Shown here piece after piece: positions 37,430-54,788 of a DNA stretch of 64,000 nucleotides. The translations under genes and the position numbers were made by a program. Each line of letters starts with the position of its first letter. Within the stretch, counting starts at the first letter, position 1. Source of the DNA: Microbacteriaceae bacterium (GTDB lineage Bacteria > Actinomycetota > Actinomycetes > Actinomycetales > Microbacteriaceae); NCBI GenBank assembly GCA_047605685.1, contig JASGFF010000001.1:26940-90939 (forward strand), in the 5' to 3' direction. The notes under the pieces are model-generated. The model was given only the letters and a program-made list of their open reading frames with translations. It did no database searches and was not told the DNA's origin.

Positions 37430-37465
37430 CCGCGCGGGGAGCGCAGAGTCCAGCGCCCGCGCAGC

Positions 37466-38628
<1,163 letters not shown>

Positions 38629-38632
<4 letters not shown>

Positions 38633-39306
38633 GCCGGGCTGCCCTGCCCGATGCGCAGCCCGGTGAGCCGCTCCACCTCGACGCGGGTCACCGAGCCGAA
38701 CAGCTCGCGCGCGGCGAAGCCCTCGGGGGTGACGTCGAAGACGCCGACATCCGTGTACACCCGGGTGACGCAGCGCACGCCGGTGAGCGGGTAGCTGCAC
38801 GCGGCGACGAGCTTCGGGGCGCCGTCGCGGGTGAGCAGGTCAGTCATCACGTACACGCTCTTGGCGCCGATGGCGAGGTCCATGGCGCCGCCGACGGCCG
38901 GGATCGCGCCGGGTGCGCCCGTCGACCAGTTGGCGAGGTCGCCGTGCTCGGAGACCTGGAAGGCGCCGAGCACGCAGACGTCGATGTGGCCGCCGCGCAT
39001 CATCGCGAAGGAGTCGGCGTGGTGGAAGTAGCTCGCGCCGGGCAGCTCGGTGACCGGCTCCTTGCCGGCGTTGATGAGGTCGGGGTCGATGCGCCCGGGC
39101 TCGGGGGCGCCGCCCATGCCGAGCATGCCGTTCTCGGTGTGCAGCACGATCTCGACGCCCGCGGGCAGGTGCGAGCTGACGAGCGTCGGGGCGCCGATGC
39201 CGAGGTTGACGTAGGAGCCCTCGGGGATGTCGGCGGCGATGCGCGCCGCGAGCTCGGCACGGCTGATGCCGGCGGGCCGGGGCGGCGCCGCGGTGGATGC
39301 GGACAT
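38629..39306 (-). CDS. pcaJ: 3-oxoacid CoA-transferase subunit B
   Basis: ORF 225 aa. ..LHTENGMLGMG.. with the catalytic Glu region. ATGA overlap with the thiolase. Confidence 0.8.
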
Positions 39307-39365
39307 GGGCGACCTCCTCGCTGCTTGCCCCCGAGAATAGACCCGATTACGCTATCCGTACAGTC

Positions 39366-39380
39366 GTGCGCAATGCGAAC
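39366..39380. promoter_or_regulatory. 15-bp imperfect palindrome gtgcgcaatgcgaac (candidate IclR/PcaR operator)
   Basis: 12 of 14 symmetric positions match. Located in the 139-bp divergent pcaJ/pcaI intergenic region. Confidence 0.35.
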
Positions 39381-39445
39381 ACATCGCGCGGGGCGAGCGC
39401 GGCGGCCGCCGCGCGGGCGGACCCTATCAAAGCAGGAGCGTGCCG

Positions 39446-40156
39446 ATGATCTCGAAGATCAGCCCCAGCCTCGAGGCGGCGGTCGCGGACATCCCCGACG
39501 GCGCCACCGTGATGATCGGCGGCTTCGGCCGCGCCGGCCAGCCCGTCGAGCTCATCGACGCGCTCATCGAGCAGGGCGCCACCGGGCTGACGATCGTCAA
39601 CAACAACGCCGGCAACGGCGAGGTCGGCCTCGCCCGGCTCATCGGGCTCGGCCGAGTGCGCCGGATGGTCTGCTCCTTTCCCCGGCAGGTCGACTCGCAG
39701 ATCTTCGACGCGAGGTATCGCGCCGGCGAGATCGAGCTCGAGCTCGTGCCGCAGGGCAATCTCGCCGAGCGCATCCGGGCCGCGGGGGCGGGAATCGGCG
39801 GCTTCTACACCCCGACCGGCTACGGCACCGAGCTCGCCGAGGGCAAGGAGGTGCGTGAGATCGAGGGCCGGCACTACGTGCTCGAATACCCGATCCGGGC
39901 GGACGTCGCGCTCATCCGCGCCCTCGCCGGCGATCGTTTCGGCAACCTCGTCTACCGCAAGACCAGCCGCAACTTCGGGCCGATCATGGCGGCCGCCGCC
40001 CGCACCACGATCGCCCAGGTCGACCGGGTCGTCGAGCTCGGCGAGCTCGACCCGGAGGCCGTGGTGACGCCCGGCATCTACGTGCAGCGCGTGGTGCAGG
40101 TCGCCGAGCGGCCCTGGCTGCGCGACGGCGAGTTCGTCGGCGCCGAAAGCGCCTGA
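39446..40156 (+). CDS. pcaI: 3-oxoacid CoA-transferase subunit A
   Basis: ORF 39440..40156. The ATG at 39446 follows RBS aggag. ..TVMIGGFG..G.P..LI.. and RKTSRNFGP family motifs. Confidence 0.8.
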   Translation: MISKISPSLEAAVADIPDGATVMIGGFGRAGQPVELIDALIEQGATGLTIVNNNAGNGEVGLARLIGLGRVRRMVCSFPRQVDSQIFDARYRAGEIELELVPQGNLAERIRAAGAGIGGFYTPTGYGTELAEGKEVREIEGRHYVLEYPIRADVALIRALAGDRFGNLVYRKTSRNFGPIMAAAARTTIAQVDRVVELGELDPEAVVTPGIYVQRVVQVAERPWLRDGEFVGAESA

Positions 40157-40896
40157 TGTCCGAGCACGTGCAGTCCCTCGAGCGGGGGCTGGCCGTCATC
40201 CGCTCCTTCCACGCGGAGGCGCCCAGCCGGACCCTCAGCGAGGTGGCCCGGGCCACGGGCCTCAACCGAGCGACGGCGCGACGCTTCCTGCTCACCCTCG
40301 CCGGGCTCGGCTACGTGCGCTCGGACGGGCGCGACTTCGCGCTCACGCCCCGAGTGCTCGAGCTCGGCTACGCCTACCTCTCCGGCCTCGGCCTGCCCGA
40401 GATCGCGCAACCGCACCTCGAGGCGCTCTCGCACGAGGTGGGCGAGTCGGCGTCGGCATCCGTGCTCGACGGGGCCGACATCGTCTACGTCGCGCGCGTG
40501 CCGGTGCGCCGCATCATGAGCGTGCGCCTCACCGTCGGCACCCGGCTGCCGGCCGCGGCCACCTCGATGGGGCGCGTGCTGCTCGCGGCGCTGCCGGACG
40601 CCGAGCGGGATGCCGTGATCGCGCGGCTTCCCGAGACGCCCGCCGCCGCCCGCCGCCTCGTCGCGGCCGTGCGCGAGGCCCGCGAGCAGGGCTGGGCGCT
40701 CGTCGACCAGGAGCTCGAGCCCGGGCTGTGCTCCATCGCGGTCCCGCTGCACGCCGAGGGCCGGGTGGTCGCGGCCATCAACGTCGCGGTCGCCGCCAGC
40801 TCCGACGCCGCCGAGCGGCTGCGCTCCGTCGTGCTGCCCGCGCTGCGCACCGCCGCGGCCCGCATCGAGGACGACATCGCGCACGTCGGCGGCTGA
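40156..40896 (+). CDS. pcaR: IclR-family transcriptional regulator (PcaR-like)
   Basis: ORF 246 aa. HVQSLERGLAVIRSF..LSEVARATGLNRATARRFL HTH plus an IclR effector domain. The start overlaps the pcaI stop. Confidence 0.8.
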   Translation: MSEHVQSLERGLAVIRSFHAEAPSRTLSEVARATGLNRATARRFLLTLAGLGYVRSDGRDFALTPRVLELGYAYLSGLGLPEIAQPHLEALSHEVGESASASVLDGADIVYVARVPVRRIMSVRLTVGTRLPAAATSMGRVLLAALPDAERDAVIARLPETPAAARRLVAAVREAREQGWALVDQELEPGLCSIAVPLHAEGRVVAAINVAVAASSDAAERLRSVVLPALRTAAARIEDDIAHVGG

Positions 40897-40956: not shown

Positions 40957-42264
40957 TCAGCCCGCGGCGTCGATCTCGCCTTGGAGCTCGCTGATGAACG
41001 CGTCCGCCGCGTCCAATGGCTCGCTCTGGCCGGCGAAGACCTCCTGTGTGTACCGCTCGAGGATGTCCTCGATGGTGGAGGCGCCGTTGGGGGTCGGCGC
41101 CGGGGTGTCACCCGGGGTGATGCTGTCCAGGTAGGCGATCGCGGCCTGGTCCGTCTCGGTCAGGCTCGAGGTGATCGCCTCACGGATCTCGTTGTTGGCG
41201 GGCACGCCGCGCTCGGTCCCGAGGATCGCACCGGCCTCGTCGCTGTTGAGCATGAAGTCCACGAACGCGGCGGCCTCGGCCGGGTGCTCGCTCTGGGACG
41301 AGATGGACCAGTACATCGACGGCTTGTAGAAGTAGGGGTTGACGTCGTCCGGCTCCGGCAGCTTCAGCAGCACGAAGTCGTCGCCGCTCGCGGCCTGGAT
41401 CGCCGTGATCTGCGTGTTCCACAGGGTGCCCATCGCCACGGCGTTGGTCGCCAGCGCTCCGGCGCCGATACCCGCGTTCTGGCTCTCGGTGATCTCCGCC
41501 GCCGACTGCATGCCGCCCGAGGACTGCAGGTCGAGCTCGAACTGCCACATGTCGGCCAGCGCCTGCGGGTCCAGCGCCACCGATCCGTCGTCATCGAACA
41601 GCTCGCCGCCCTCCGAGCGCGCCCAGTACTTGACGCTCCCGGTCTCGAAGCCGCCGATCTGCGCCGATCCGGTGATCGCGCCGTCGCTGGCCTCGGTCAG
41701 CTCGTCGGCGAGCGCCGCGTAGTCGTCCCAGCTCCAGGTGTCGTCGTCCGGCAGATCGACGCCGTACTGGTCGAACAACGTCTTGTTCGCGATGATCGCG
41801 TACACGGTCACGCCGATCGGGATCGCGTACTGGGTGTCGTCGACCTTGCCGAGGTCGACCGTCGACTCGTCGAAGTTGGAGGTGTCGATGCTGAGGTCGC
41901 TGAGGTCGTACAGGGATCCGCGGCTGGCGTAGGAGGAGAGATAGGTCTCGTCCATCTGGACGACGTCAGGCATGTCGCCGGCGGCGGTCTCGGTGGCCAG
42001 CTGGTCCCAGTAACCGGTCCAGTCGGTGTACTGCGGCTCGACGGTGATGTTCGGGTACTCCTTCTCGAACGCGTCGATCGCCTCCTGGGTCAGCTGCACG
42101 CGCGTGTCGCCGCCCCAGAACGTGGCGGTGATGGTGACCGGGTCGGTGCTCAGCGCGGTCACCGACGAGCTGCTCGAGCCGGAGCAGCCCGCCAGCACGG
42201 CGGCCCCGCCCAGCGCCATGGCGACGGCCGCTACCGCGCGCCGCTGGTTCTTGCCTGTGATCAT
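40957..42264 (-). CDS. carbohydrate ABC transporter substrate-binding lipoprotein
   Basis: C-terminal 435 codons of ORF 40957..43098. Signal/lipobox ..GGAAVLAGCSG. Acidic SBP family 1 features. Confidence 0.85.
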   Translation of the reverse strand: MITGKNQRRAVAAVAMALGGAAVLAGCSGSSSSSVTALSTDPVTITATFWGGDTRVQLTQEAIDAFEKEYPNITVEPQYTDWTGYWDQLATETAAGDMPDVVQMDETYLSSYASRGSLYDLSDLSIDTSNFDESTVDLGKVDDTQYAIPIGVTVYAIIANKTLFDQYGVDLPDDDTWSWDDYAALADELTEASDGAITGSAQIGGFETGSVKYWARSEGGELFDDDGSVALDPQALADMWQFELDLQSSGGMQSAAEITESQNAGIGAGALATNAVAMGTLWNTQITAIQAASGDDFVLLKLPEPDDVNPYFYKPSMYWSISSQSEHPAEAAAFVDFMLNSDEAGAILGTERGVPANNEIREAITSSLTETDQAAIAYLDSITPGDTPAPTPNGASTIEDILERYTQEVFAGQSEPLDAADAFISELQGEIDAAG

Positions 42265-42344
42265 GTGTGTCTCTCCTATGAGATCAGCGATGTGATTGAT
42301 GCGGATACGGGGCAGAGGCCCCGGGGTCCGGCGACGACGCCGGC

Positions 42345-43247
42345 TTACTTTCCTCCCGTGGTGGCGATTCCCTTGACGAGGAACCGCTGGCCGAAGAGGA
42401 AGATCAGGAAGACCGGGATCAACGAGACGACGCTCATGGCGAACACCGCGCCCCAGTTGGTGACGCCCTGCGAGTCGACGAACGCGCGGAGCGCGAGCGG
42501 AGTGGTGTACATCTCGGGCTTGGTCAGGTAGATCAGCTGCGAGAAGAAGTCGTTCCACGTCCAGATGAAGGTGAAGATCACCGTCGTGCCGAGCGCGGGG
42601 ACCATCAGCGGCAGCATGATCTGCGTGAAGATCCGCAGATGGCCGGCCCCGTCGATCCGTGCCGCCTCGTCGAGCTCGCGCGGGATGCCGCGGATGAACT
42701 GCACCATCAGGAAGACGAAGAACGCGTCGGTCGCGAACAGCTTGGGCAGGATCAGCGGCCAGAACGTGTTCACCAGGTTCACCTGCGAGAACATGATGTA
42801 CTGCGGGACGATGATCACGTGGATGGGGACCATGATCGTGACCAGCATGATCGCGAACCACCACCGCTTGCCTCGGAAGTCGAGCCGGGCGAAGGCGTAG
42901 GCCGCGAGCGAGCAGGCCACGAGGTTGCCCGTGATCGCCCCGACCACCACGATCATCGAGTTGATCAGGTAGTGGCCGAAGGGCTGGGTCAGAGCCGACC
43001 AGCCGTCGATGTAGTTCGAGATCTCGAAGTTCTTCAGCAGCAGGCTCGGGTTCCCGAAGATCCCGTCGTTGGGTCGCAGCGAGCTGACCACCATCCACAG
43101 GACGGGGTAGAGCATCAGCAGCGCGCCCAGGATGAGCACGACGTGCTTGACCAAGGCGCGCGCCGACTGCAGCACCTGCCGACGCCGGGCCGGGGTGCGG
43201 GTCACGGCCTGCTTCGGGACGGACAGGATGGTGGATGTCTTAGTCAT
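42345..43247 (-). CDS. carbohydrate ABC transporter permease (MalG-like)
   Basis: ORF 300 aa. EAARIDGAGHLRIF EAA loop. Confidence 0.9.
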   Translation of the reverse strand: MTKTSTILSVPKQAVTRTPARRRQVLQSARALVKHVVLILGALLMLYPVLWMVVSSLRPNDGIFGNPSLLLKNFEISNYIDGWSALTQPFGHYLINSMIVVVGAITGNLVACSLAAYAFARLDFRGKRWWFAIMLVTIMVPIHVIIVPQYIMFSQVNLVNTFWPLILPKLFATDAFFVFLMVQFIRGIPRELDEAARIDGAGHLRIFTQIMLPLMVPALGTTVIFTFIWTWNDFFSQLIYLTKPEMYTTPLALRAFVDSQGVTNWGAVFAMSVVSLIPVFLIFLFGQRFLVKGIATTGGK

Positions 43248-44169
43248 CGTAGAAAACCCAGTACTTCGAGAGCCAGAAATTGAGAGCGGTGAACGCGCCG
43301 ATGACCAGCACCAACAGCCATGCCAACGCCGACGCGTACCCCATGTCGAATGAGCCGAACGCTCGTTGATACAGGTAGAGCGAGAACACCAGCGTCGAGT
43401 CCGCCGGCCCGCCCGTCCCGCCCGAGACCACGAACGCCTGCGTGAACGACTGGAACGCGTGGATGATCTGCAGCACCAGGTTGAAGAAGATGATCGGGCT
43501 CAAAAGCGGCATCGTGATGCTCCGGAACTGCCGCCACCGACTCGCCCCATCTACCTGCGCGGCCTCGTAATACGACGTCGGGATCTGCCGCAGACCGGCC
43601 AGGAAGATCACCATCGGTGAGCCGAACGTCCACACGTTCAGCAGGATCAGGGTTGCCAACGCGGTATCAGGACTGGAGATCCAGCCCTGCCCCTGGATCC
43701 CGAAGAACGCGAGAGCATCGTTGACCAGGCCGCCCGTGCCGAACACCGTGCGCCACAGCACCGCGATCGCGACCGAGCCGCCGAGCAGCGACGGCAGATA
43801 GAACACCGACCGGTAGAACGACAGTCCGCGCACTCCCCGGTCCAGGAACACCGCGAGCGCGAGTGCGAGCGCCAGTTGGAGCGGGACCGAGATGATCACG
43901 TAGAGGAACGTGTTGATCAACGATCGCAGCAGACGCTCATCGCCGAACATCCGCACGATGTTGTCCAGTCCGTTGAACACCGGCGCCTGCAACAGGTTGT
44001 ACTTCGTGAAGGCCAGCACCAACGACGCCAGCATCGGCCCGGCCGTGATCAGCACCAGGCCGATGAACCAAGGGGTCAGGAACCAGGCCGCGGCGCGGTT
44101 ATCCCGCTTGCTGCCTTTGCCGCCCTTCTCGAGCTTTCGAAGCTCTGCAAGCGCGCTCATACGGTGCAC
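43240..44169 (-). CDS. carbohydrate ABC transporter permease (MalF-like)
   Basis: ORF 309 aa, polytopic, EAAQVDGASRWRQF. Confidence 0.9.
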   Translation of the reverse strand: MHRMSALAELRKLEKGGKGSKRDNRAAAWFLTPWFIGLVLITAGPMLASLVLAFTKYNLLQAPVFNGLDNIVRMFGDERLLRSLINTFLYVIISVPLQLALALALAVFLDRGVRGLSFYRSVFYLPSLLGGSVAIAVLWRTVFGTGGLVNDALAFFGIQGQGWISSPDTALATLILLNVWTFGSPMVIFLAGLRQIPTSYYEAAQVDGASRWRQFRSITMPLLSPIIFFNLVLQIIHAFQSFTQAFVVSGGTGGPADSTLVFSLYLYQRAFGSFDMGYASALAWLLVLVIGAFTALNFWLSKYWVFYDD

Positions 44170-44249: not shown

Positions 44250-44261
44250 GTGTTCGTTCAC
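44250..44261. promoter_or_regulatory. weak copy of the GTGAWCGWTCAC operator (gtgttcgttcac)
   Basis: Right half-site perfect, left half has 2 mismatches. 81 nt upstream of the ABC operon start. Confidence 0.4.
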
Positions 44262-44282
44262 TATTTGGCTTTCCTCAAGATA

Positions 44283-44294
44283 GTGAACGATCAC
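44283..44294. promoter_or_regulatory. operator copy gtgaacgatcac
   Basis: Near-palindrome with a central CG and AT-rich flanks. 114 nt upstream of the ABC permease start at 44169. Confidence 0.6.
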
Positions 44295-44774: not shown

Positions 44775-46190
44775 CTATGCGCTGCGGGGCGCGGGCCGCT
44801 CGCACCGGCCGACCAGGGATCTCACCCGGGCGCTGAAACCGGCGTCATCCGCGAGCCGGGAGTCGATCGTGCGCAGCATCGCCGCGACCGGGTCCCTCTC
44901 CGCCAGCGCCCCCGCGATCTCCGTGCCGCGGCTGTCCTCGCCCGCCACCCCGCGGCGCACCGCCGCGATCCAGGCGGCGATCACGAGGGCCGCGCCCTCG
45001 GCGGCACGGCCCGCACGACGCTCCGCCCGTGCGACCGGACCGATGCGCAGCGACAGCTTCGTCAGCGCGTCCGAGGCGATCTGCTCCAGCCGGTGCTCGA
45101 TGCGCGGGTTCGCGAACCGTTCCCGAAGGGCGGCGCGATACGCATCGACCCCCAGGCCGTCGGGCAGCTGCCGCTCCGCCTCGTCCCACCAGCGCTCGAC
45201 GGCTCGAGCGCATTCGGGGTCGGCCATCGCGTACGCCACCGTGTCGTGCCCACGGAGGCGGCCGAGCGCGGCGAGCAGCGTGTGGGCGCCGTTGAGCAGC
45301 CAGAGCTTGCGGGCCTCGTACGGCTCGATCTCGTCGACGAAGCGCGCTCCGGCCGATTCCCAGTCGGGACGCCCGGCCGGGAAGGCGCCCGAGAGCGTCC
45401 AGTCAGCGAACGGCTCCGCCGCCACCGGCACGGCATCCCGCCAGCCGGTGGCGGCGGCCACCTCCGCGGCGAGCTCGGCGTCGACGCGCGGCGTGATGCG
45501 GTCCACCGACGTCGAGACGAAGGACGCCGACGAGGTGATCCAGTCGACCAGGCCAGGCTCGACCTCGGCGGCCAGACGGGCGAGCGCCCGCCGCAGCGCG
45601 CCGCCGTTGTCCGGGAAGTTGTCGCAGGGCACGATCGCGAGCGGCCCCGCCCCGAGCCTGCGCCGCTCACGCAGTGCGGCGACGAGCCGCCCCGGCGTCG
45701 TCTCGCAGTGTCCGGCGGCGGCACCGCGCAGGCGCGCCAGGTCGGCGGCGATGCCCGGATGGGCCAGGTCGAGGGCGCCGCTCGGATCGAGGCAGTACCC
45801 CGCCTCGGTGACCGTCAGCGTCACGACGGCCGTGCGCGCGGCGGCGATGCCGGCGACGAGCGCCTCGACCTCGGTGCCGGCGTGGGCCGCGACGACGCTG
45901 TCGACGATCTCGAACCGGTCCCCGGCGAGCCCGCGCTCCACGAGCGTGAACAGTCCGTCCTGGGCGGCCAGGCGATGCGCCAGCTCCGCGCCGCGCCCGG
46001 CGAACGCGGCGATGCCCCACTCCCGGGCGTCGGCGGCGCGCGCCGTGTACCAGGCCTGGTGCGCGCGGTGGAAGGCGCCGAGCCCGATGTGCACGATCCG
46101 TGCCGGCGGCCGCCCGTCGGCGACTCCCCGGGATCGCGCGAGGGCCTGGCGCGACAGCTGCCGCGCGGTCACGGCCTGAACGCCCGACAC
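44775..46190 (-). CDS. mannitol dehydrogenase family oxidoreductase (mannitol 2-dehydrogenase / D-mannonate (fructuronate) / tagaturonate reductase family)
   Basis: ORF 471 aa. IVHIGLGAFHRAHQAWY N-terminal motif and a VDRITP segment. Confidence 0.85.
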   Translation of the reverse strand: MSGVQAVTARQLSRQALARSRGVADGRPPARIVHIGLGAFHRAHQAWYTARAADAREWGIAAFAGRGAELAHRLAAQDGLFTLVERGLAGDRFEIVDSVVAAHAGTEVEALVAGIAAARTAVVTLTVTEAGYCLDPSGALDLAHPGIAADLARLRGAAAGHCETTPGRLVAALRERRRLGAGPLAIVPCDNFPDNGGALRRALARLAAEVEPGLVDWITSSASFVSTSVDRITPRVDAELAAEVAAATGWRDAVPVAAEPFADWTLSGAFPAGRPDWESAGARFVDEIEPYEARKLWLLNGAHTLLAALGRLRGHDTVAYAMADPECARAVERWWDEAERQLPDGLGVDAYRAALRERFANPRIEHRLEQIASDALTKLSLRIGPVARAERRAGRAAEGAALVIAAWIAAVRRGVAGEDSRGTEIAGALAERDPVAAMLRTIDSRLADDAGFSARVRSLVGRCERPAPRSA

Positions 46191-46353: not shown

Positions 46354-46365
46354 GTGATCGTTCAC
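46354..46365. promoter_or_regulatory. operator copy gtgatcgttcac in the divergent dehydrogenase/LacI promoter region
   Basis: Same 12-mer as at 54777, with AT-rich flanks. Confidence 0.65.
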
Positions 46366-46393: not shown

Positions 46394-47458
46394 ATGATCA
46401 CGACCGCGTCAATCGACCGTCCGGGGGAGGGGATCGTGGCCCAGCACACAGTGGCCCAGCACACAGGGACGGCTCGGCGTCCGACCATCCTCGAGGTGGC
46501 CCGGCTGGCCGGCGTCTCGCACCAGACCGTCTCCCGGTTCCTCAGGTTCAACGGCGACGGGCTCAAGCCCGCGACGCGTGAGCGTGTCACCGCCGCGATC
46601 GAGGAGCTGAACTACCGCCCGAACCTCCTCGCCCGCTCCATGCGCACCCGCGTGACCGGCCGGGTGGCCGTGCTCATGCCGGCGCTCGCCTACAACCCGG
46701 CCCGCATGCTCGCCGGCGCGACGCGGACGGCGCACGACGCCGGCTACACCGTGGAGGTCATCAGCCCGGAGGGCGGCGCCGCCTCCCGCGCCGAGCGCAT
46801 CCTGGAACTGTCCGACACGCGACAGGTCGACGGGATCCTGTCGCTGGCGGCCGCCGACCTCGCCGACGGCGACCTGCCGACCGACACGGTCGTCGTCATC
46901 TCCTCGAGCCTCGACGACGAGATGCGCAGCACCGGGGAGCTGACCGACGCGACGCCGATCGTGAGGTTCGTCGAGCGCCTCGCCGAACTCGGACACCGGC
47001 GTTTCTACCACGTGGCCGGCGAGGCCGACTTCCCGTCTGCGCGGACTCGGGCGGCCGCGTTCACCGAGACCGTGGAGCGCCTGGGCCTGGAGTCGACGGG
47101 GATCTACGCGGGCGACTGGAGCGGGGAGTCGGGCGTCGCGGCGGTGCGGGCGATCCGCGCCGGCCACGAGCCCACCGCCATCATCGCGGCCAACGACGTC
47201 ACGGCCGCCGGCGTGATGCGCGGCGCCGTCGCCCGCGGCTGGAGCATTCCCGGCGACATCAGCGTGACCGGCTGGGACAACAACCCGATGGGACCGTTCC
47301 TGAGCCCGTCGCTGACCACCGTGGAGGTGAACCACGAACGGGTCGGCAGCAACGGGATGGCGCGGCTGATCGCCCTGCTGCGCGACGAGGAGCCCCAGAT
47401 CACGGATGTCCCGGTGAACCAGATCATCTGGCGGGAGTCGACCGGCCCCGCCGCCTGA
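46394..47458 (+). CDS. LacI-family transcriptional regulator (probable cognate of the GTGAWCGWTCAC sites)
   Basis: ORF 354 aa. HTH PTILEVARLAGVSHQTVSRFL. The start is uncertain (ATG 46394, or GTG 46436/46451 inside a 15-bp x2 duplication). Confidence 0.85.
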   Translation: MITTASIDRPGEGIVAQHTVAQHTGTARRPTILEVARLAGVSHQTVSRFLRFNGDGLKPATRERVTAAIEELNYRPNLLARSMRTRVTGRVAVLMPALAYNPARMLAGATRTAHDAGYTVEVISPEGGAASRAERILELSDTRQVDGILSLAAADLADGDLPTDTVVVISSSLDDEMRSTGELTDATPIVRFVERLAELGHRRFYHVAGEADFPSARTRAAAFTETVERLGLESTGIYAGDWSGESGVAAVRAIRAGHEPTAIIAANDVTAAGVMRGAVARGWSIPGDISVTGWDNNPMGPFLSPSLTTVEVNHERVGSNGMARLIALLRDEEPQITDVPVNQIIWRESTGPAA

Positions 47459-47558
47459 CGAACCGGGACCCCGGCGGCTCGGCGCCGGTCCACGGGCGTG
47501 CGTCCATCCACAGTCGACACCGGCCGATGGACGCCAGCACCGGCCGATTGACGCCAGA

Positions 47559-47570
47559 GTGATCGTTCAT
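47559..47570. promoter_or_regulatory. operator copy gtgatcgttcat
   Basis: One mismatch to the consensus. 159 nt upstream of the giant ORF. Confidence 0.5.
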
Positions 47571-47589
47571 TATAGTCAGCCGGCAGAGG

Positions 47590-47601
47590 GTGAACGTTCA
47601 C
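47590..47601. promoter_or_regulatory. operator copy gtgaacgttcac (perfect palindrome)
   Basis: 128 nt upstream of the ATG at 47729. Confidence 0.65.
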
Positions 47602-47728: not shown

Positions 47729-50700
47729 ATGAGACGACCGCGTCTATGGATGCCCGCTCTCGCCGCTCTCACGATCGCCACCCTCGGCGCCGGCACGATA
47801 CTCGCCAACGCGACCACGGCCTCCGCCGCGACGACCGTGACGACCGTGACGACGAGCGCCGACACGACGTTCGCCGGCTACACCGACAAGGACGACCTCG
47901 GCACCACCGGACGCGAGATCGTCACGGACGGCGAGCTCCCGGTGACGGACGGCTCGGCGCCCACGGGAACGGGCACCACCTACTACGTCGACTCCGTCGA
48001 CGGCGACGACAGCGCCGACGGCACCTCGACCGACACGGCCTGGCAGTCGTTCGACAACGTGAACGACACCGTGTTCGAGGCGGGCGACCGCATCCTGCTG
48101 AAGGCCGGCAGCGTCTGGGAGGCTGACGGCGACACGGTCGCGACCGAGGCCTACGACTACACGACCTGGAGCGACGGCGTCGGCACCGACGTCGAGGGCG
48201 GCGACCCCACCGCGCTGCTGGCGCCGCAGGGCTCGGGAACCGAGGACGACCCGATCGTGCTCTCCAGCTACGGCGACGGCGCGGCCCCGGAGCTGGACGG
48301 CCGCGGCACCGTCAACGACGTGCTGCAGCTGACGAACCAGGAGCACTGGGACATCTCCAACATCGAGATCACCAACGTGACCGACGGCTTCGACGCCACG
48401 ACGAACGACGCCACAGGCCTCGCGCCGGGCGAGGAGGACCCCGACCAGGGAGACCTGCGCGGCATCCACATCCAGGGCGAGAGCGCGGGGGTTCTCAGCG
48501 GCTTCGACATCCACGACGTCTTCATCCACGACGTCAGCGGCGTGACCTGGTCGGTCACCAATGCCGGCGTCGACCGCTCGAAGCGGACCGGCGGCATCGT
48601 CTTCGAGGGGCTCAAGGGCGACGGCGTCACCGCCAGCCAGCTCGAGGACATCGTGATCAGCGACAGCGTGATCGCGAACACCTCCTTCGCGAACATCGCC
48701 TTCCGCCAGTTCTCCGGAATGGGCACCTGGCGGTATCACGACGTCGACCCGGGATGGGGCGACCGCGCCGCGGCCTCGGCGACCACGACGGGTGTGATCA
48801 CCGAGGACCCCGACTGGACCCCGTTCACCGACGTCGAGATCTCGGGGAACTACCTGACCAACAGCGGCACCGCCTACGGCTGGGACGCCATGTACCTGAC
48901 GAGCGTGCAGGACGCGACGGTCGAGGACAACCTCATCGACGGCGCCGGCGTCACGGGCATCGAGATGTACTGGGACGACAACATCGTGGTCCAGAACAAC
49001 GAGGTCGCGGACATCGAGGAGCGCACGGACGCGGCGGACAAGAACGGCATCGACATGGACCGTGGGACCTCGAACATCCTGGTCCAGGGCAACTACGTCC
49101 ACGACAGCGGCGAGGGCATCCTGCTCTGCGGGTTCTCGTTCAGCACGGCGGTCGTGCGGTACAACATCATCGCCGACATCGATCGCAACTACATCAACCC
49201 GCACGGCGACAGCGGCGTCAACGTCATCTACAACAACCTGATGTACAACGCCCAGGAGGGCGAGAGCGACGAGATCGGCTTCTTCCGCTCCTCGGGGACG
49301 GAGTCGACCTACCTGACGTCGAGCAATCTGCACTACGTGCTGAACAACGTGTTCATCAACACGCAGTCCGACGGGGTGACCGGCTCCGACTTCGAGACCG
49401 ACTATCCCGGCGTGACCTTCAGCAACAACTCCTACTCCGGGGTGGAGATCAGCGCCCCATCGGCCGACGCGAACGCCATCACGGCCGACCCGCAGCTGAT
49501 CGGGGACCCGCTGGACGACATCACCAACGCGGAGATCGGCTCGGTCTCCTCGCCGCTGATCGCGGCCGGCACCACCGTCGACCTGGCCACGATCGCGCCC
49601 GGCTTCGACGCCAGCGGGGAGTCGGACGACAGCCAGCTCACGGCCAGCACCGACTTCTTCGGCGAGAGCCTCTCGACGCCGCCCACGGTCGGCCCCACCT
49701 CGTACACGCCCGCCGACGGCGACGGCGTGATCGCGGGTGAGGTGCTGGACGAATCGGGTGAGCCCGTGCCCGACGCGACCGTCAGCTACGACTCGGAGTC
49801 GGTCACCGCCGACGACGACGGTCATTATGCGATCGAGGTCGAGGCCGGCACGTACACCCTGACGCCGAGCGCCACGGACTACGAGTCGGGCGACGGCGTC
49901 GAGGTGACGGTCGCCGACGGGGAGACGCTGGGGACGGACCTGACCCTGGGCGAGACGACCACCACCCTCGGCACGGTGACCGGCACGGTCACCGCCGCCG
50001 GATCCGTCGTCGCGGACGCGACCGTCGTGCTGTCGGAGGGCGAGGAGACCGTGGCGACGACCACGACCGACGACACTGGCGTCTACGCTTTCTCCGACGT
50101 GCCGGCGGCGAGCGACTACACGGTCGACGTGACCAAGGACGGCTACCTGGAGAGCTCCACGTCCGATGTGACCGTCGCGGCCGCGCGCACGACGACGGTC
50201 GACGTCACGCTCTCCCGCGATCCGGGCGAGACCGACTACGCGATCAACGAGACCTTCGACGACGAGACCACCGGCACCTTCACCGGCACCGCTGACGGCG
50301 TCTTCGCCGTGACCTCCTCGTCCTCGTCGGCGGCCACGCTCAGCATCGTGGAGGACGCCGACCAGTCGGGCAACAAGTACCTGGACATCGACAAGACCGC
50401 CAGCGGCAACATCGCGGTGTACACGCCCGAGGCGCAGGGCCTCACCGGCACGGTCACGATCGAGGCGAGGGTCAAACGCACCTCGACGACCTCCTACCCC
50501 AACCAGGTGGGCTTGTACTCCTACGCCGCGTCGGGCTGGGATGCCACCTCGCCGTGGTCCTCGTCCGACCCAGCGGCGACGTTCGCCTTCTCGAACGGGA
50601 ACATCATCACGCACAACGTGACCGGGTCGAGCACGACCGTGGCCGCCGAGGCCTACACGGTCGACCAGTGGTACACGATCCGCAACGTCGTCGACCTCGA

Positions 50701-52321
50701 CACCGGGACGTTCGACTTCTATGTGGACGACATGACCACGCCGGTCCTGTCCGACCAGCCGTTGCGCAGCCAGGTGGACGAGCTCGACTACTTCTCGTTC
50801 CTGTCCACCTCGTCGAACATCGGCGACATGCTCGTCGACTACTTCCGGGTGAACACCGGCGAGCCGTACGACTACGACGACTCCGTCCTCGGCAGCGTCG
50901 ACGTGGAGACCGACGACGGCCAGGTGACACTGGACACGTCGGACGACGGGCTGACCTACTCCGGCACCGTCGACCAGTTCACCGACGAGGTCACGGTCGC
51001 CGCGACCGCGGACAGCCCGTTCGCGAGCGTCTCCGTCGACGGGACCACGGTCGCCGACGGTGAGACGGTGACCGTGCCACTGGACGAGGGAGACGACCAG
51101 GAGGCGACGATCACGACCGACATCCCCGTCGTGGTCACCGCCGAGGACGACAGCACGACCTCCTACACGATCGCCATATCGCGGACCAATCCAAGCCAGT
51201 CGACACAGTTGCGCGACCTCTCGGTCGTCGGCTACGAGCTGAGCCCGACGTTCGAGCCGGACCTGCAGGGAACCGACGAGCCGTACACGCTGACCGAGAC
51301 CCTGGACAGCTCGGTGACCTCGGCGGAGATCGAGTGGGTGGTCGGCTGGGACGACCAGAGCGTGCAGGTCGACGGTAAGGACATCGCATCCGGCACGACC
51401 GAGACCACGGTCGATCTGGAGGCCGGCGAGAACACGATCGAGGTCGTGGCGAGCTCGTACGCGGGCGAGACGGGCACCTACGTGATCACGATCGACGTGG
51501 CCGAAGAGCCCACCTCCGTCACCGTGACCGGCACGTCCAGCGTTGTGGTCGGCGAGACGACCACGCTGACGGCGACGGTCGCGCCCGACGACGCGGATCA
51601 GAGCGTCACCTGGTCGTCGTCGGACACCGCGGTCGCCACCGTCTCCTCCGCGGGAGTCGTCACCGGCGTGGCGGAGGGGACGGCGGTGATCACGGCCACC
51701 TCCGATGCCGACGACGACATCTCCGGCTCGCTCTCGGTCACCGTGTCGCCCGCGGCTTCGGTCGCCACGGCTTCCACGGCGGCGGCGATATCGGCCGGCA
51801 CCGTGACGGTGTCGGGTACGGCGAGGGTCGGTTCGACGCTGCGAGCGCACACGGGGAGCTGGTCCCCCACGGGCGTGACGTTCACGTATCAATGGCTGCG
51901 CAATGGCGTCGCGATCAGCGGGGCCACGGGCTCGTCGCACAAGCTCGTGGCGAAGGACGCCCACACCCGGCTGAGCGTGCAGGTGACGGCCTCGGCCACC
52001 GGCTACACGAGCACCACGGCCGTGTCCGCCGCGACCACGAAGGTGAAGCTCGGCAAGCTGACGACGAAGAAGCCCACGATCGCGGGGACCGCTAAGGTCG
52101 GCAAGAGGCTGAAGGCCAAGTCGGGCACCTGGAGCCCGTCGGGCGTGAAGCTGCACTACCGGTGGTACCGCAACGGCAAGGTCATCAAGGGCGCCACCGC
52201 GTCGACCTACCGGCTCAAGAAGGCCGACAAGGGCGCCAAGATCACCGTGAAGGTCACCGGCAAGAAGTCCGGCTACGCGACGGCCGCCAAGAAGTCGAAG
52301 GCGACCGCGAAGGTCCGCTGA
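47729..52321 (+). CDS. secreted 1530-aa multidomain protein with a right-handed parallel beta-helix catalytic-type region (putative polysaccharide lyase/glycanase of unknown specificity)
   Basis: Signal peptide residues 1-33 (..ATTASA). Beta-helix-like repeats about residues 80-600 (47966-49528). Two CarboxypepD_reg-like domains (49724-49948, 49970-50215). LamG/ConA-like domain (50231-50854). Two cadherin-like beta-sandwiches (50882-51184, 51200-51496). Big_2 domain (51512-51745). Two paralogous C-terminal repeats (51791-52036, 52058-52318). Domain names are from pattern recognition only. Confidence 0.85.
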   Translation: MRRPRLWMPALAALTIATLGAGTILANATTASAATTVTTVTTSADTTFAGYTDKDDLGTTGREIVTDGELPVTDGSAPTGTGTTYYVDSVDGDDSADGTSTDTAWQSFDNVNDTVFEAGDRILLKAGSVWEADGDTVATEAYDYTTWSDGVGTDVEGGDPTALLAPQGSGTEDDPIVLSSYGDGAAPELDGRGTVNDVLQLTNQEHWDISNIEITNVTDGFDATTNDATGLAPGEEDPDQGDLRGIHIQGESAGVLSGFDIHDVFIHDVSGVTWSVTNAGVDRSKRTGGIVFEGLKGDGVTASQLEDIVISDSVIANTSFANIAFRQFSGMGTWRYHDVDPGWGDRAAASATTTGVITEDPDWTPFTDVEISGNYLTNSGTAYGWDAMYLTSVQDATVEDNLIDGAGVTGIEMYWDDNIVVQNNEVADIEERTDAADKNGIDMDRGTSNILVQGNYVHDSGEGILLCGFSFSTAVVRYNIIADIDRNYINPHGDSGVNVIYNNLMYNAQEGESDEIGFFRSSGTESTYLTSSNLHYVLNNVFINTQSDGVTGSDFETDYPGVTFSNNSYSGVEISAPSADANAITADPQLIGDPLDDITNAEIGSVSSPLIAAGTTVDLATIAPGFDASGESDDSQLTASTDFFGESLSTPPTVGPTSYTPADGDGVIAGEVLDESGEPVPDATVSYDSESVTADDDGHYAIEVEAGTYTLTPSATDYESGDGVEVTVADGETLGTDLTLGETTTTLGTVTGTVTAAGSVVADATVVLSEGEETVATTTTDDTGVYAFSDVPAASDYTVDVTKDGYLESSTSDVTVAAARTTTVDVTLSRDPGETDYAINETFDDETTGTFTGTADGVFAVTSSSSSAATLSIVEDADQSGNKYLDIDKTASGNIAVYTPEAQGLTGTVTIEARVKRTSTTSYPNQVGLYSYAASGWDATSPWSSSDPAATFAFSNGNIITHNVTGSSTTVAAEAYTVDQWYTIRNVVDLDTGTFDFYVDDMTTPVLSDQPLRSQVDELDYFSFLSTSSNIGDMLVDYFRVNTGEPYDYDDSVLGSVDVETDDGQVTLDTSDDGLTYSGTVDQFTDEVTVAATADSPFASVSVDGTTVADGETVTVPLDEGDDQEATITTDIPVVVTAEDDSTTSYTIAISRTNPSQSTQLRDLSVVGYELSPTFEPDLQGTDEPYTLTETLDSSVTSAEIEWVVGWDDQSVQVDGKDIASGTTETTVDLEAGENTIEVVASSYAGETGTYVITIDVAEEPTSVTVTGTSSVVVGETTTLTATVAPDDADQSVTWSSSDTAVATVSSAGVVTGVAEGTAVITATSDADDDISGSLSVTVSPAASVATASTAAAISAGTVTVSGTARVGSTLRAHTGSWSPTGVTFTYQWLRNGVAISGATGSSHKLVAKDAHTRLSVQVTASATGYTSTTAVSAATTKVKLGKLTTKKPTIAGTAKVGKRLKAKSGTWSPSGVKLHYRWYRNGKVIKGATASTYRLKKADKGAKITVKVTGKKSGYATAAKKSKATAKVR

Positions 52322-52354
52322 CCTGACGGCGGATCCCGACGGCGGATCCCGAAT

Positions 52355-52391
52355 AGAGGCCCGGCTCCCGTCCCACGGGGGCCGGGCCTCT
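52355..52391. terminator. strong GC hairpin (11-bp arms agaggcccggc / gccgggcctct) between convergent genes
   Basis: Perfect inverted repeat 34 nt after the giant ORF stop, followed by cgtgtt. Preceded by a 13-bp x2 direct repeat (52325-52350). Confidence 0.65.
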
Positions 52392-52481
52392 CGTGTTCGC
52401 GCCGGAGCGCCGGCACCCGGCCGGACTCCACGTGGTCGACGCGAGGCAACGGACTCGGCCCCCGCCGGGTCGGCAGACCGG

Positions 52482-53555
52482 TTACGGCGCGAGAACGCGC
52501 GCCTGAGCCTGCGCGCGGACGCTGAGCTCGGCCGCCTTGAAGGCGTGCGCCTGCGTCATCGCGTTCTCGGTGCGGTTCAGGCAATCCAGTATGAGCTCGC
52601 CGAAGAAGGGGTAGCCGACGGTGCCCGCGGCGTCGATGCGCCGCTCGCCGTCGCCGTTGACCAGGAACAGCTGGCCGGGGCCGTGGCCCGTGGCCACATC
52701 CACGTACTTGCGCAGCTCGATGTACCCCTCGGTGCCGAGGATGAAGGTGCGGCCGTCGCCCCAGGTCCTCAGCCCGTCGGGGGTGAACCAGTCGACGCGC
52801 ACGTATCCGGTGGTGCCGTTGTCCAGGACCAGGTGGGCGTCGCCGAAGTCGTCCAGCCCCGGCGTCTCGGGGTGCGCGTGGTTCGCGATCGTCGCACTGC
52901 TGATCTCGGCGTCCTGCGCGCCGGTGAAGTGCAGCAGCTGCTCGAAGTTGTGGCTGCCGATGTCGCACAGGATGCCGCCGTACCGCTCGCGCTCGAAGAA
53001 CCAGTCGGGCCTGCCGGTGCCGAGCCGGTGCGGCCCGAAGCCGGCGACGTGCAGCACCCGGCCGATCGCGCCCTCCTCGATGAGCCGGCCGGCCAGGACG
53101 GCCGCCTCGACGTGGATGCGCTCCGCGTAGTAGACCGCGTATTTGCGCCCGGTGCGCTCGGTGGCGGCGCGGGCGGCGGCCAGCTGGTCAAGGGTGGTCA
53201 GCGGCGCCTTGTCGGTGAAGTAGTCCTTGCCCGCTGCCATCACCCGCAGTCCCAGCTCGCAGCGCTCCGAGGCGATCGCGGCGCCGGCGACCAGGCGCAC
53301 CTGCGGATCGTCGAGCACCTCGGCCTCGCTGCGGGCGATGCGCGCCTGCGGGAAGGTCTCGCGGAATCTCTCGGCCCGCCCGGGCACCGGGTCGTAGACC
53401 CACTTCAGTGTGGCGCCGGCGTCGACGAGCGCGCCGGTCATGCCGCGGATGTGCCCGTGGTCGAGGTGGGTCGCGGCGATGACGAACTCGCCGGGTGCGA
53501 CCACGGGCCGGGGCACGGATGCGGGCGCGTAGTTGGCGCCGTCGGAACTGGGCAT
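52482..53555 (-). CDS. Gfo/Idh/MocA-family oxidoreductase
   Basis: C-terminal 357 codons of ORF 52482..54767, from MPSSDGANYAP. Rossmann N-domain plus a GFO_IDH_MocA C-domain pattern. Confidence 0.8.
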   Translation of the reverse strand: MPSSDGANYAPASVPRPVVAPGEFVIAATHLDHGHIRGMTGALVDAGATLKWVYDPVPGRAERFRETFPQARIARSEAEVLDDPQVRLVAGAAIASERCELGLRVMAAGKDYFTDKAPLTTLDQLAAARAATERTGRKYAVYYAERIHVEAAVLAGRLIEEGAIGRVLHVAGFGPHRLGTGRPDWFFERERYGGILCDIGSHNFEQLLHFTGAQDAEISSATIANHAHPETPGLDDFGDAHLVLDNGTTGYVRVDWFTPDGLRTWGDGRTFILGTEGYIELRKYVDVATGHGPGQLFLVNGDGERRIDAAGTVGYPFFGELILDCLNRTENAMTQAHAFKAAELSVRAQAQARVLAP

Positions 53556-53581
53556 GGATTCCTCGCTGTCGCCGTCGCCGC

Positions 53582-54742
53582 TCAGCCGGCGTCCGACGAG
53601 GCGCCGACGATGATGGCGCCCTGCTCGCGCCGAGAGCCGGTCTTCTCGAAGAAGCGCGGGGCGCGCGACTCGAGCCCGCCGGAGCGGTAGTAGGGGCTGT
53701 CCGGCGGCAGCGGCAGGTCGATGGTGCGACGCTCGATCGCCGCCTGGTAGATCGCGGTGACCAGTTCGACGGCATTGCGCCCGTCGACGCCGGTGGCCTG
53801 CAGCGGCGCCTCGCCGCGGATCGCGGCGAGGACGTTGGCGATCTGCCCCGCGTGGCGCACGTGCTCCAGCGGCACGTGGCTCGCGGCGAGCGCGTCGAGT
53901 CGCGCCACGAGCTCTGCGTCGCCGCCCGGCGCGGGGAAGCCGTCCTCGCCGCCCCTCTCGGCGACGGCGCGCCACGGCTGGGAGACGCGCGCTCGCTCGC
54001 CCTGCACGACGATCGCCTGTTCCTCGCCGTGGTCGACGACGGAGCTCGTCAGCTCCGCGAGCGCCCGGTCGTACTGGAGCACGGCCACCGACAGGTCTTC
54101 GACCTCGGCGTTGTCGTGCTGTGCGTTGGTCATCATGGCGGCCACGGCGCGCGGGCGGCCCAGCAGCCACAGCAGCAGGTCGATGTGGTGGATCGCGTGG
54201 TTGAGCGTGCAGCCGCCGCCCTCCGAGGCCCAGGTGCCGCGCCACCACAGGTCGTAATAGGGCAGGCCGCGCCACCACGACGAGTCGACCCGCACATGGG
54301 AGATCGAGCCGATCAGACCGGTGCCGAGCACCTCCTTGAGCGTGGCGATGTCGTCGCGGTAGCGGTTCTGCGCGATCACGGACAGGATGCGTCCCGACTC
54401 CGCCGCCGCGGCGAGCATCGCGTCGCACTCCTCGAGCGAGGTGGCCATCGGCTTCTCGACGACGACGTTCACCCCGTGACGCAGGTACTGGATCGCCAGC
54501 GGCGCGTGCGCCGCCGGCGGGGTGACGATGCTGACGAGGTCGAGTCGCTCGGCCGCGAGCATCGAATCGGCGCTGTCGTAGGCCCGCACGTTCCGCAGGC
54601 CGTGCTCGTCGCGCTTGGCGGACGCCCGCTCGACGCCGAGATCGGAGATCGCCACGATCTCGACCTCCTCGGGGAACTGCAGGTACGCCTTGATGTGCGC
54701 GTTCGAGATCCCGCCGGCTCCGACGATTCCGACCTTGAGCAT
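53582..54742 (-). CDS. Gfo/Idh/MocA-family oxidoreductase
   Basis: ORF 386 aa. MLKVGIVGAGGISNAHI..VVVEKPMA motifs. Confidence 0.85.
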   Translation of the reverse strand: MLKVGIVGAGGISNAHIKAYLQFPEEVEIVAISDLGVERASAKRDEHGLRNVRAYDSADSMLAAERLDLVSIVTPPAAHAPLAIQYLRHGVNVVVEKPMATSLEECDAMLAAAAESGRILSVIAQNRYRDDIATLKEVLGTGLIGSISHVRVDSSWWRGLPYYDLWWRGTWASEGGGCTLNHAIHHIDLLLWLLGRPRAVAAMMTNAQHDNAEVEDLSVAVLQYDRALAELTSSVVDHGEEQAIVVQGERARVSQPWRAVAERGGEDGFPAPGGDAELVARLDALAASHVPLEHVRHAGQIANVLAAIRGEAPLQATGVDGRNAVELVTAIYQAAIERRTIDLPLPPDSPYYRSGGLESRAPRFFEKTGSRREQGAIIVGASSDAG

Positions 54743-54776: not shown

Positions 54777-54788
54777 GTGATCGTTCAC
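54777..54788. promoter_or_regulatory. operator copy gtgatcgttcac
   Basis: 35 nt upstream of the oxidoreductase start at 54742. Confidence 0.65.

Follow-up and report, generated by a model that had tools for sequence, protein, structure and literature searches.

A secreted multidomain protein with a GH136-like β-helix domain in an operator-controlled sugar uptake locus of a Microbacteriaceae bacterium

A 64,000-nucleotide stretch of contig JASGFF010000001.1 (assembly GCA_047605685.1, positions 26,940 to 90,939; termed the window, G+C 71%), from the 2.55-Mb genome of a Microbacteriaceae bacterium (119 contigs, 98% complete), carries at 47729–52321 a gene for a protein of 1530 amino acids (aa), termed here the exoprotein. 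An earlier annotation made from the sequence alone (the original prediction) described it as a secreted multidomain β-helix protein of unknown specificity, with no recognisable CAZy catalytic signature, that might represent an unassigned lyase or glycanase family. To which family does this protein belong, and what might it cleave? The first part of that description holds: the exoprotein is a secreted multidomain β-helix protein and very probably an enzyme, predicted to be of the GH136 type. To our knowledge, the only bacteria in which GH136 has been described are gut bacteria that release lacto-N-biose (LNB) units from human milk oligosaccharides and mucin. The conserved surroundings of the gene point instead to a polymer bearing α-linked (methyl)glucuronic acid.

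The β-helix domain and its relation to GH136

The catalytic domain and its two predicted catalytic residues are located as follows.

47954–49699, plus strand: GH136-like right-handed β-helix catalytic domain, aa 76–657 (phmmer, profile, AlphaFold2 and Foldseek)
49037–49039, plus strand: codon of D437, predicted general acid/base, aligned to LnbX D411 and ErLnb136 D568 (alignments, codon checked)
49058–49060, plus strand: codon of D444, predicted nucleophile, aligned to LnbX D418 and ErLnb136 D575 (alignments, codon checked)

A phmmer search with residues 1–690 against the PDB returned only GH136 lacto-N-biosidases, in alignments that run from residue 76 to about 657. The E-values were 2.4e-14 for TnX (PDB 7v6m), 1e-11 for BsaX (7v6i), 2.8e-9 for LnbX of Bifidobacterium longum (5gqc) and 4.1e-9 for ErLnb136 of Eubacterium ramulus (6kqs), with the weakest GH136 structure match at 1.8e-7. 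A profile built from 18 orthologues matched the same structures at 7.3e-23 (7v6m), 5.5e-18 (6kqs), 1.2e-17 (7v6i) and 2.5e-16 (5gqc), the range extending to 2.5e-15, and matched no enzyme family in the PDB besides GH136. Pfam scanning, which the original prediction had proposed as a check on its β-helix, found Beta_helix at residues 370–503 (3e-8) and thus agrees with that fold; the NCBIfam scan of the whole exoprotein gave just a sub-threshold parallel-β-helix repeat.

Structure prediction and a fold search, proposed in the same place, led to the same family. The AlphaFold2 (AF2) model of residues 70–660, built on a 48-sequence alignment, has a mean predicted local distance difference test score (pLDDT) of 93.7 and a predicted template modelling score (pTM) of 0.94. 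Structural similarity search of this model against the PDB using Foldseek revealed that the top six matches are all GH136 structures, with template modelling (TM) scores of 0.51–0.73 and E-values of 1.7e-22 to 8.8e-15; the scores to 7v6m, 5gqc and 7v6i are 0.66–0.73. The next family is GH120, represented by the β-xylosidase XylC of xylan metabolism (3vst). XylC is likewise a right-handed β-helix glycosidase, but its match is far weaker, with an E-value of 1e-7, a TM score of ~0.4 and a root-mean-square deviation of 13 Å, and it shows no sequence match to the exoprotein.

The D-x6-D pair of GH136 aligns to D437 and D444, inside ...TDAADKNGIDMDRG... of the exoprotein. The catalytic pair of LnbX, which we take to be numbered D411 and D418, occupies the same two columns. 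In ErLnb136, D568 serves as acid/base and D575 as nucleophile (PMC7335108). Neither aspartate of the exoprotein varies among 48 homologues, which reach down to ~30% identity, or among the 18 orthologues. The exoprotein and GH136 also share the QxNE and QxNYxH motifs on either side of the pair, and Y414 of the exoprotein is aromatic at the position where GH136 has a tryptophan. Residues 76–657 thus match a characterised CAZy family by sequence, profile and fold, with its catalytic residues conserved, which is the finding that the original prediction had named beforehand as speaking against an unassigned family; its statement that no CAZy catalytic signature could be recognised has likewise to be withdrawn. 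With high confidence, the catalytic domain of the exoprotein is a GH136-type glycosidase.

Comparison with the characterised enzymes revealed both a shared architecture and clear differences. Like the exoprotein, LnbX, BsaX and TnX are extracellular multidomain proteins with an N-terminal right-handed β-helix, whose catalytic domain starts with the same GTTYYV..GDD..GTS cap and shares the D-x6-D pair as well as the QxNE, QxNYxH and RYNI motifs. Unlike them, the exoprotein carries two CarboxypepD_reg domains and an L-lectin-like module after the catalytic domain. The genes of its branch are set among glucuronate catabolism, GH115 and Gfo/Idh/MocA genes, whereas the context of LnbX, BsaX and TnX is LNB transport and GH112. 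The hosts also differ, those of the exoprotein branch being soil and plant actinobacteria, bifidobacteria of bees and tamarins, and Hungatella. The two-subunit enzymes ErLnb136 and RhLnb136 (Roseburia) possess a β-helix like that of the exoprotein (TM ~0.5, E-value 4e-15), and the spacing between acid/base and nucleophile in ErLnb136 (D568, D575) is the same. However, these enzymes are cytoplasmic and need a fused or co-expressed eight-helix domain I, whereas the exoprotein is secreted and has almost no helix in the models.

On a quick maximum-likelihood tree of the N-terminal ~200 residues (193 rows, for which rows sharing 60% identity or more with the query were thinned to one in four), the four characterised GH136 enzymes form one clade (support 100) within a 23-row group, and the orthologue clade of the exoprotein (support 99) lies within a separate 170-row group. 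The 247 relatives collected include no close relative of LnbX, TnX, BsaX or ErLnb136 (best 39–40% over the N-terminal 190 residues), so partial PDB segments taken from the phmmer alignments were used for the tree. As the exoprotein stands apart from the characterised enzymes, its branch is uncharacterised; judged by sequence, it is a deep, distant branch of GH136 and not a new family.

This branch is embedded in a large set of homologues. In a library of 1.84 billion proteins clustered at 50% identity, 4380 clusters match at E ≤1e-3, 1269 at ≤1e-10 and 127 at ≤1e-30, and homologues are publicly named "carboxypeptidase regulatory-like domain-containing protein" and similar. The nearest relatives belong to Microbacterium metagenome-assembled genomes (MAGs); their catalytic domains are 94% and 83% identical to that of the exoprotein. 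Orthologues at 55–94% identity occur in Microbacterium, Humibacter, Rathayibacter, Arthrobacter and relatives, Demequina, Myceligenerans, Kineococcus, Kribbella and Streptomyces, and further ones in bee-gut and tamarin bifidobacteria; a clade of ~40% identity is found in Hungatella hathewayi. Of 200 genomes sampled from the host's own family, three gave a match at E ≤1e-30, at 34–41% identity and of the paralogue type, and none held an orthologue. The orthologue group is therefore rare and patchy.

The GH136 enzymes known so far depend on a helical partner, LnbY or subunit I; that of ErLnb136 wraps around the β-helix and reaches the active site (PMC7335108). DSSP analysis of both AF2 models found essentially no helix in the exoprotein. 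In a comparison of 22 orthologous loci, the window included, no LnbY-type partner gene adjoins the orthologues, as judged by neighbour families rather than by a search with LnbY as query; the recurrent neighbours are LacI, ATP-binding cassette (ABC) transporter genes, Gfo/Idh/MocA, GH115, cupin and DUF6807. Either the exoprotein branch is partner-independent or its partner was missed.

Export, accessory domains and surface attachment

The coding sequence and the parts of the exoprotein outside the catalytic domain are as follows.

47729–52321, plus strand: exoprotein coding sequence (P0001), 1530 aa, stop codon included (open reading frame, translation, GC3)
47729–47827, plus strand: Sec-type signal peptide, aa 1–33, putative cleavage between ...ASA and A (read from sequence)
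49712–50218, plus strand: two CarboxypepD_reg (transthyretin-like) β-sandwich domains, aa ~662–830 (Pfam PF13620, 3.5e-25, two stretches)
50234–50902, plus strand: ConA-like or L-type-lectin-like jelly roll, aa ~836–1058, probable carbohydrate-binding module (AF2 and Foldseek)
50912–51502, plus strand: two cadherin-like β-sandwich domains, aa ~1062–1258 (Pfam PF12733, 1.7e-14, two stretches; AF2 pLDDT >90)
51512–51763, plus strand: Big_2 domain and linker, aa 1262–1345 (Pfam PF02368 at 1262–1327, 1.1e-12)
51764–52318, plus strand: two basic ~88-aa C-terminal repeats, aa 1346–1530, proposed non-covalent wall anchor (self-alignment, composition)

The open reading frame begins at the earliest possible start codon. 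Its G+C content at third codon positions (GC3) of 0.96 and its codon-position G+C pattern mark it as a real gene, and a Shine–Dalgarno-like GGAAAGGA lies 9 nt upstream of the start. The N-terminus MRRPRLWMPALAALTIATLGAGTILANATTASA, followed by A after the putative cleavage site, is Sec-like and contains the sole strongly hydrophobic stretch of the protein. A Tat signal was considered, given RR at positions 2–3, and rejected: the +2 position holds an arginine in place of a hydrophobic residue, and TIGR01409 (NCBIfam) was not matched. Neither an LPXTG-like motif nor a second hydrophobic or transmembrane segment was found in the 1530 residues.

Nearly all of the domain anatomy given in the original prediction, from the Sec signal peptide through the CarboxypepD_reg pair, the cadherin-like pair and Big_2 to the missing LPXTG motif, was borne out by these scans. 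The CarboxypepD_reg domains are kept in most homologues down to ~35% identity, and the Big_2 domain also matches the Big_2 of PDB 7quz. The module proposed as LamG/ConA-like has no Pfam match when the segment is scanned alone, but AF2 and Foldseek assign it to the L-type lectin or ConA-like jelly rolls. The model of residues 831–1260 has a pLDDT >90, and structural similarity search with it retrieved ERGIC-53, calreticulin, domain 4 of AbnA and the L-lectin and cadherin modules of SraP. Within residues ~836–1258 the jelly roll resembles both the SraP ligand-binding region (4m00) and ERGIC-53, and in SraP, as here, it is followed by cadherin-like domains. Over the whole segment the TM score is low, at 0.19–0.25, so the likeness is limited to the domain folds; moreover, SraP is an adhesin without a catalytic domain, unlike the exoprotein. 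Some homologues possess carbohydrate-binding modules (CBMs) of the cellulose or chitin type (CBM_5_12, CBM3).

The exoprotein forms a marked charge dipole. Residues 34–1345 have an isoelectric point (pI) of 4.05, with 17.7% D+E and 14% T, whereas residues 1346–1530 are rich in lysine and arginine with a pI of 11.3, which matches the described acidic, Thr-rich body with a differing tail. This tail consists of two mutually alignable repeats of ~88 aa. The original prediction of two C-terminal Ig-like repeats stands as far as the repeats are concerned, while an Ig fold is weakly supported, with a sub-threshold Ig_2 match (E-value 9e-4) and an AF2 pLDDT <50. Big_2 and the repeats were both modelled with a pLDDT <50 in the second AF2 model because the aligned homologues do not share the tail.

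The basic repeat (G.W.P..V...Y.W.R.G..I.GAT) recurs at at least five other sites of the genome with 35–61% identity, on contigs C24, C57, C29, C13 and C8, and looks like a surface-attachment module shared among proteins of the host organism. Homologues of the exoprotein carry lineage-typical wall anchors at the same end, namely SLH, choline-binding, FIVAR and PxKF, which fits a lineage-specific anchoring role of the basic repeats.

The operator regulon and the orthologous loci

The regulatory signals and the neighbouring genes of the locus are listed below.

40957–44169, minus strand: sugar ABC importer, with permeases at 43240–44169 and 42345–43247 and a solute-binding protein from 40957 to ~42330 (Pfam BPD_transp_1, SBP_bac_1)
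44250–44294, no strand: operator pair upstream of the ABC importer operon (motif scan)
44775–46190, minus strand: gene of the long-chain mannitol dehydrogenase family, probably UxuB (fructuronate reductase) (Pfam, NCBIfam)
46354–46365, no strand: operator in the divergent promoter region of the UxuB-like and LacI genes (motif scan)
46394–47458, plus strand: LacI-family repressor gene, presumed regulator of the locus (Pfam LacI and Peripla_BP_3)
47548–47576, plus strand: sigma-70-like promoter of the exoprotein gene, TTGACG-17 nt-TATAGT (consensus scan)
47559–47570, no strand: operator O1, GTGATCGTTCAT, one mismatch to GTGAWCGWTCAC, inside the promoter spacer and -10 region (motif and promoter scans)
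47590–47601, no strand: operator O2, GTGAACGTTCAC, a perfect palindrome directly downstream of the -10 element (motif scan)
52350–52399, plus strand: GC-rich terminator hairpin (RNA fold)
52482–54742, minus strand: two Gfo/Idh/MocA oxidoreductase genes, 53582–54742 and 52482 to ~53600 (family scans)
54777–54788, no strand: operator upstream of the Gfo/Idh/MocA pair (motif scan)

The promoter matches the consensus at 10 of 12 positions, compared to 0.1 such sites expected in shuffled sequence, and the two operator copies that had been predicted lie within it and just past it. At the other end, the RNA fold of 52322–52400 has an energy of -51.4 kcal/mol (z = -4.83) and forms a GC-rich hairpin after the stop codon. 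This hairpin corresponds to the strong terminator of the original prediction; it was missed by a simple terminator scan because its U tract is weak. Read together, a promoter of its own overlapped by two LacI-type operators and a hairpin at the end support the view that the gene is regulated and would be transcribed alone.

The 12-bp palindrome GTGAWCGWTCAC, allowing at most one mismatch, occurs seven times in the window against 0.55 expected. Across the 2.55-Mb genome there are five exact copies against 0.15 expected, of which four lie in the exoprotein locus. The sole exact copy elsewhere is GTGATCGATCAC on contig C35, position 1451. An operator-like site at 37622 (one mismatch) lies inside a thiolase gene and was taken as chance. 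The Gfo/Idh/MocA pair and the UxuB-like gene are the sole cytoplasmic enzymes of the window regulon. The product of the latter matches the NCBIfam fructuronate reductase model at 5.7e-74, below the cut-off, and is 84% identical to the gene that adjoins UxaC, UxuA and Eda in a Microbacterium MAG (locus L008).

Comparison of the orthologous loci revealed a recurrent gene set. A LacI gene is adjacent to the orthologue in 20 of the 22 loci and the ABC importer trio is present in ~15, while GH115 lies within 10 kb in six (Hungatella, B. indicum, a Microbacterium MAG, Myceligenerans, Kribbella and Demequina). A further assembly of Demequina lignilytica likewise has GH115 next to the orthologue. The operator stands upstream of the orthologue and of ABC, UxuA, GH115 and Gfo genes across loci L007, L008, L010, L013, L018, L019, L022 and L023, and it occurs as a pair before the orthologue in L008, L010, L013, L018 and L019. 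This conservation is that of a LacI-controlled sugar utilisation regulon, with repressor binding predicted from the motif. The fullest version is L008, whose enzyme is 83% identical to the exoprotein. Here the operator stands before the ABC genes, the divergent LacI/UxaC genes, UxuA, the enzyme (two copies), GH115 (two copies) and the Gfo pair, and the locus also holds a UxuB-type dehydrogenase and a 2-keto-3-deoxy-6-phosphogluconate (KDPG) aldolase. L008 thus places most of the glucuronate (Ashwell) pathway and an α-glucuronidase under the operator of the exoprotein gene. No signal peptide was found in the GH115 neighbour proteins, which must therefore act on imported oligosaccharides.

Compared to L008, the window carries a trimmed version of the locus that lacks GH115, UxuA and Eda. 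The gene order is UxuB-LacI-enzyme-Gfo-Gfo in the window, LacI-UxuA-x-enzyme-Gfo-Gfo in L007 and UxuB-UxaC-LacI-UxuA-x-Eda-enzyme-GH115-Gfo-Gfo in L008. The host's own 2.55-Mb genome yielded neither GH115 nor UxuA anywhere, and its UxaC gene lies on contig C10 (42355–43761) next to an Eda-like fragment. No glycoside hydrolase gene occurs within ~12 kb of the exoprotein gene, the nearest being a GH32 of a separate fructan locus. The earlier remark that no glycoside hydrolase is nearby is therefore correct for this window, but it misleads as a guide to function, since orthologous loci hold GH115 under the same operator.

Gfo/Idh/MocA is the commonest enzyme family near the orthologues (10 of 109 neighbour proteins, 16 loci), and its recurrence hints at an oxidative step, 3-keto or NAD-dependent, on the imported sugar. 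These genes often stand two or three in a row, at times with DUF6807, cupin or a xylose-isomerase-like TIM barrel (L012–L014, L019, L022, L023, L003). Several homologues combine the GH136-like enzyme with an SGNH/GDSL esterase domain in one protein (L024; L026, B. avesanii; P0074, P0076, P0078 and P0079), and in L024 two PL11 rhamnogalacturonan lyases flank it. This suggests that at least some members act on an acetylated, rhamnose-containing glycan.

Elsewhere in the window, an ordinary fructan/sucrose-type locus spans 27770–35995. It comprises GH32 genes at 27770–29251 (minus strand) and ~33700–35033 (plus strand), a LacI gene at 29248–30339, an ABC importer made up of a solute-binding protein gene at 30333–31820 and two permease genes extending to ~33670, and a PfkB sugar kinase gene at ~35070–35995. 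The G+C content over 30000–34000 is 0.62–0.68, compared to 0.71 for the window. Unrelated housekeeping and catabolic genes occupy 36293–40896, namely a CofD-family gene, a thiolase, two CoA-transferase subunits and an IclR regulator.

Proposed function, substrate and alternative explanations

We propose that the exoprotein is a wall-anchored retaining GH136-like glycosidase that depolymerises a glucuronate-decorated glycan, and we put the probability of this model as a whole at roughly 0.6. The protein would be exported by Sec, after which its basic repeats would bind the acidic enzyme to the anionic wall, with no need for a sortase; the transthyretin-like, L-lectin-like, cadherin-like and Big_2 domains would serve as stalk or spacers and as glycan-binding modules. 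On the face of the β-helix, a retaining double displacement is predicted from homology, in which D444 would be the nucleophile and D437 the general acid/base. The polymer would be cut outside the cell into acidic oligosaccharides that may enter through the co-regulated ABC importer. The adjacent LacI-family repressor is predicted to bind the GTGAWCGWTCAC operators at the exoprotein promoter, the ABC importer, the UxuB-like gene and the Gfo/Idh/MocA pair, and its repression would be relieved by a sugar derived from the imported oligosaccharides. In relatives, the cytoplasmic GH115 would strip off α-linked (methyl)glucuronic acid, (Me)GlcA, which would then pass into the UxaC-UxuB-UxuA-Eda route. 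These functional steps are deduced from the fold, family tie, charge distribution and gene arrangement described above.

This scheme follows a familiar design. Gram-positive aldouronate systems combine an extracellular xylanase, an ABC importer, a cytoplasmic α-glucuronidase and UxaC/UxuB/UxuA. The loci of the relatives similarly place under one repressor a depolymerase at the cell surface, an ABC importer, a GH115 that stays in the cytoplasm and the Ashwell pathway. They differ in the depolymerase itself, which belongs to GH10, GH11 or GH30 in the aldouronate systems and is GH136-like here.

Since the uptake locus is predicted to be controlled by a repressor and is tied to glucuronate breakdown in relatives, the enzyme probably cuts an acidic plant-type glycan. 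From the conserved context we infer a polymer with α-linked (methyl)glucuronic acid rather than the lacto-N-biose of milk or mucin. Glucuronate-decorated plant glycans (glucuronoxylan, type-II arabinogalactan, gums) rank first as candidates, followed by gums resembling rhamnogalacturonan I (RG-I) and then by microbial polymers. A more specific version can be offered only tentatively: a new specificity in the GH136 clan, in which a partner-independent, wall-anchored depolymerase of an α-glucuronate-decorated plant glycan (glucuronoxylan, type-II arabinogalactan or tree gum) feeds the ABC importer, cytoplasmic GH115 and the Ashwell pathway, and the Gfo/Idh/MocA pair might carry out oxidative, NAD-dependent cleavage of the imported sugar.

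Searches of the accessible literature found no report that ties a GH136-type enzyme to glucuronate glycans, and no paper there mentioned GH136, GH115 and glucuronic acid together. A paper that names both GH136 and gum arabic deals solely with GH136 enzymes for milk oligosaccharides and uses the gum independently as a substrate for growth, and one of two that name GH136, xylan and GH115 just lists families.

Several observations weigh against the proposed model. The catalytic domain is just 20–22% identical to the solved GH136 enzymes (Foldseek), and all members of its branch are themselves predicted enzymes. Known GH136 enzymes depend on a partner, whereas none is seen here. The assignment of D437 and D444 comes from the alignment and not from model coordinates, which bears on active-site geometry and on pocket versus cleft. 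The anchoring by the basic C-terminal repeats is purely something that we infer. The glucuronate link rests on relatives, because GH115 and UxuA were not found in the host's own genome. Moreover, some loci point to other sugars: in B. saguinibicoloris (L024), two PL11 rhamnogalacturonan lyases flank the enzyme fused to an SGNH esterase, and the Humibacter locus carries a GH106 rhamnosidase.

It is conceivable, though unlikely, that the same type of surface retaining glycosidase acts on a microbial polymer, either a bacterial or fungal exopolysaccharide or a glucuronate/rhamnose wall polymer such as teichuronic acid, a gellan/sphingan-type polymer or glucuronan. Such a substrate would suit a rare accessory gene of soil and plant-surface actinobacteria that has no orthologue in the 200 family genomes, as well as the rhamnose-active neighbours at some loci, and uronate catabolism genes would serve any glucuronate polymer. 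However, GH115 enzymes act on the α-(Me)GlcA of xylan and arabinogalactan, which is the activity for which the family is known. The orthologues in bee-gut bifidobacteria, bifidobacteria of gum-feeding primates and Hungatella of the human gut, together with CBM_5_12 and CBM3 on some homologues, also fit a microbial substrate poorly. A recent study (PMC13712309, 2026) of a bifidobacterium from gum-feeding primates describes a gene cluster for type-II arabinogalactan and counts GH115 as one of its intracellular enzymes, but does not mention the family of the exoprotein.

A true lacto-N-biosidase or galacto-N-biosidase-type enzyme that releases a hexosamine-containing disaccharide is improbable. 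The sole characterised relatives are indeed lacto-N-biosidases and Lewis a/b-releasing enzymes, and the catalytic pair and several nearby motifs are conserved, but at the low identity given above the exoprotein belongs to a separate deep branch on the N-terminal-domain tree, and its hosts are soil actinobacteria. Neither hexosamine genes nor GH112 occur in any of the 22 loci, whereas GH115 and the Ashwell pathway recur. The 98%-complete genome likewise gave no match to GH112 (PF09508), which counts weakly as control genomes were equally silent.

A polysaccharide lyase (PL) acting on a uronate polymer, as the original prediction had suggested, is very improbable: the β-helix is common to PL1, PL3, PL6 and PL9 and uronate catabolism genes lie nearby, but the PL9 and PL6 structures in the Foldseek list reach TM scores of only 0.2–0.43 (E-values 1e-4 to 1e-7) against ~0.7 (1e-22) for GH136, no PL was matched by sequence or profile, and the neighbours encode the saturated-glucuronate route (UxaC, UxuB, UxuA) and GH115 while KduI/KduD or GH88/GH105, needed for lyase products, are absent among them. 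Equally remote is the possibility that the exoprotein uses its β-helix merely as a scaffold and works without catalysis, as an adhesin of the surface or a wall protein of the lectin type. In its favour, the Ig-like and lectin-like modules are many, the middle part finds its closest structural match in the staphylococcal adhesin SraP, and the enzymatic role is predicted. Against it, the two catalytic aspartates and their surrounding motifs are invariant in homologues from several phyla, and the gene appears to share its LacI-type control with the sugar importer and with catabolic enzymes.

What is new here is apparently the physiological setting of a branch of a known family, which seems to do without the usual partner. 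The exoprotein is part of a very large uncharacterised hinterland of the GH136 fold, in which the public name of its homologues hides a likely glycosidase, and it bears on whether GH136-type enzymes work without an LnbY-type partner. Its function is hinted at with unusual clarity by the company that the gene keeps across three phyla, namely an ABC importer for sugars and a GH115 of the cytoplasm. Characterisation of the exoprotein would probably add a substrate specificity to GH136 and possibly a new route into glucuronate-decorated plant glycans.

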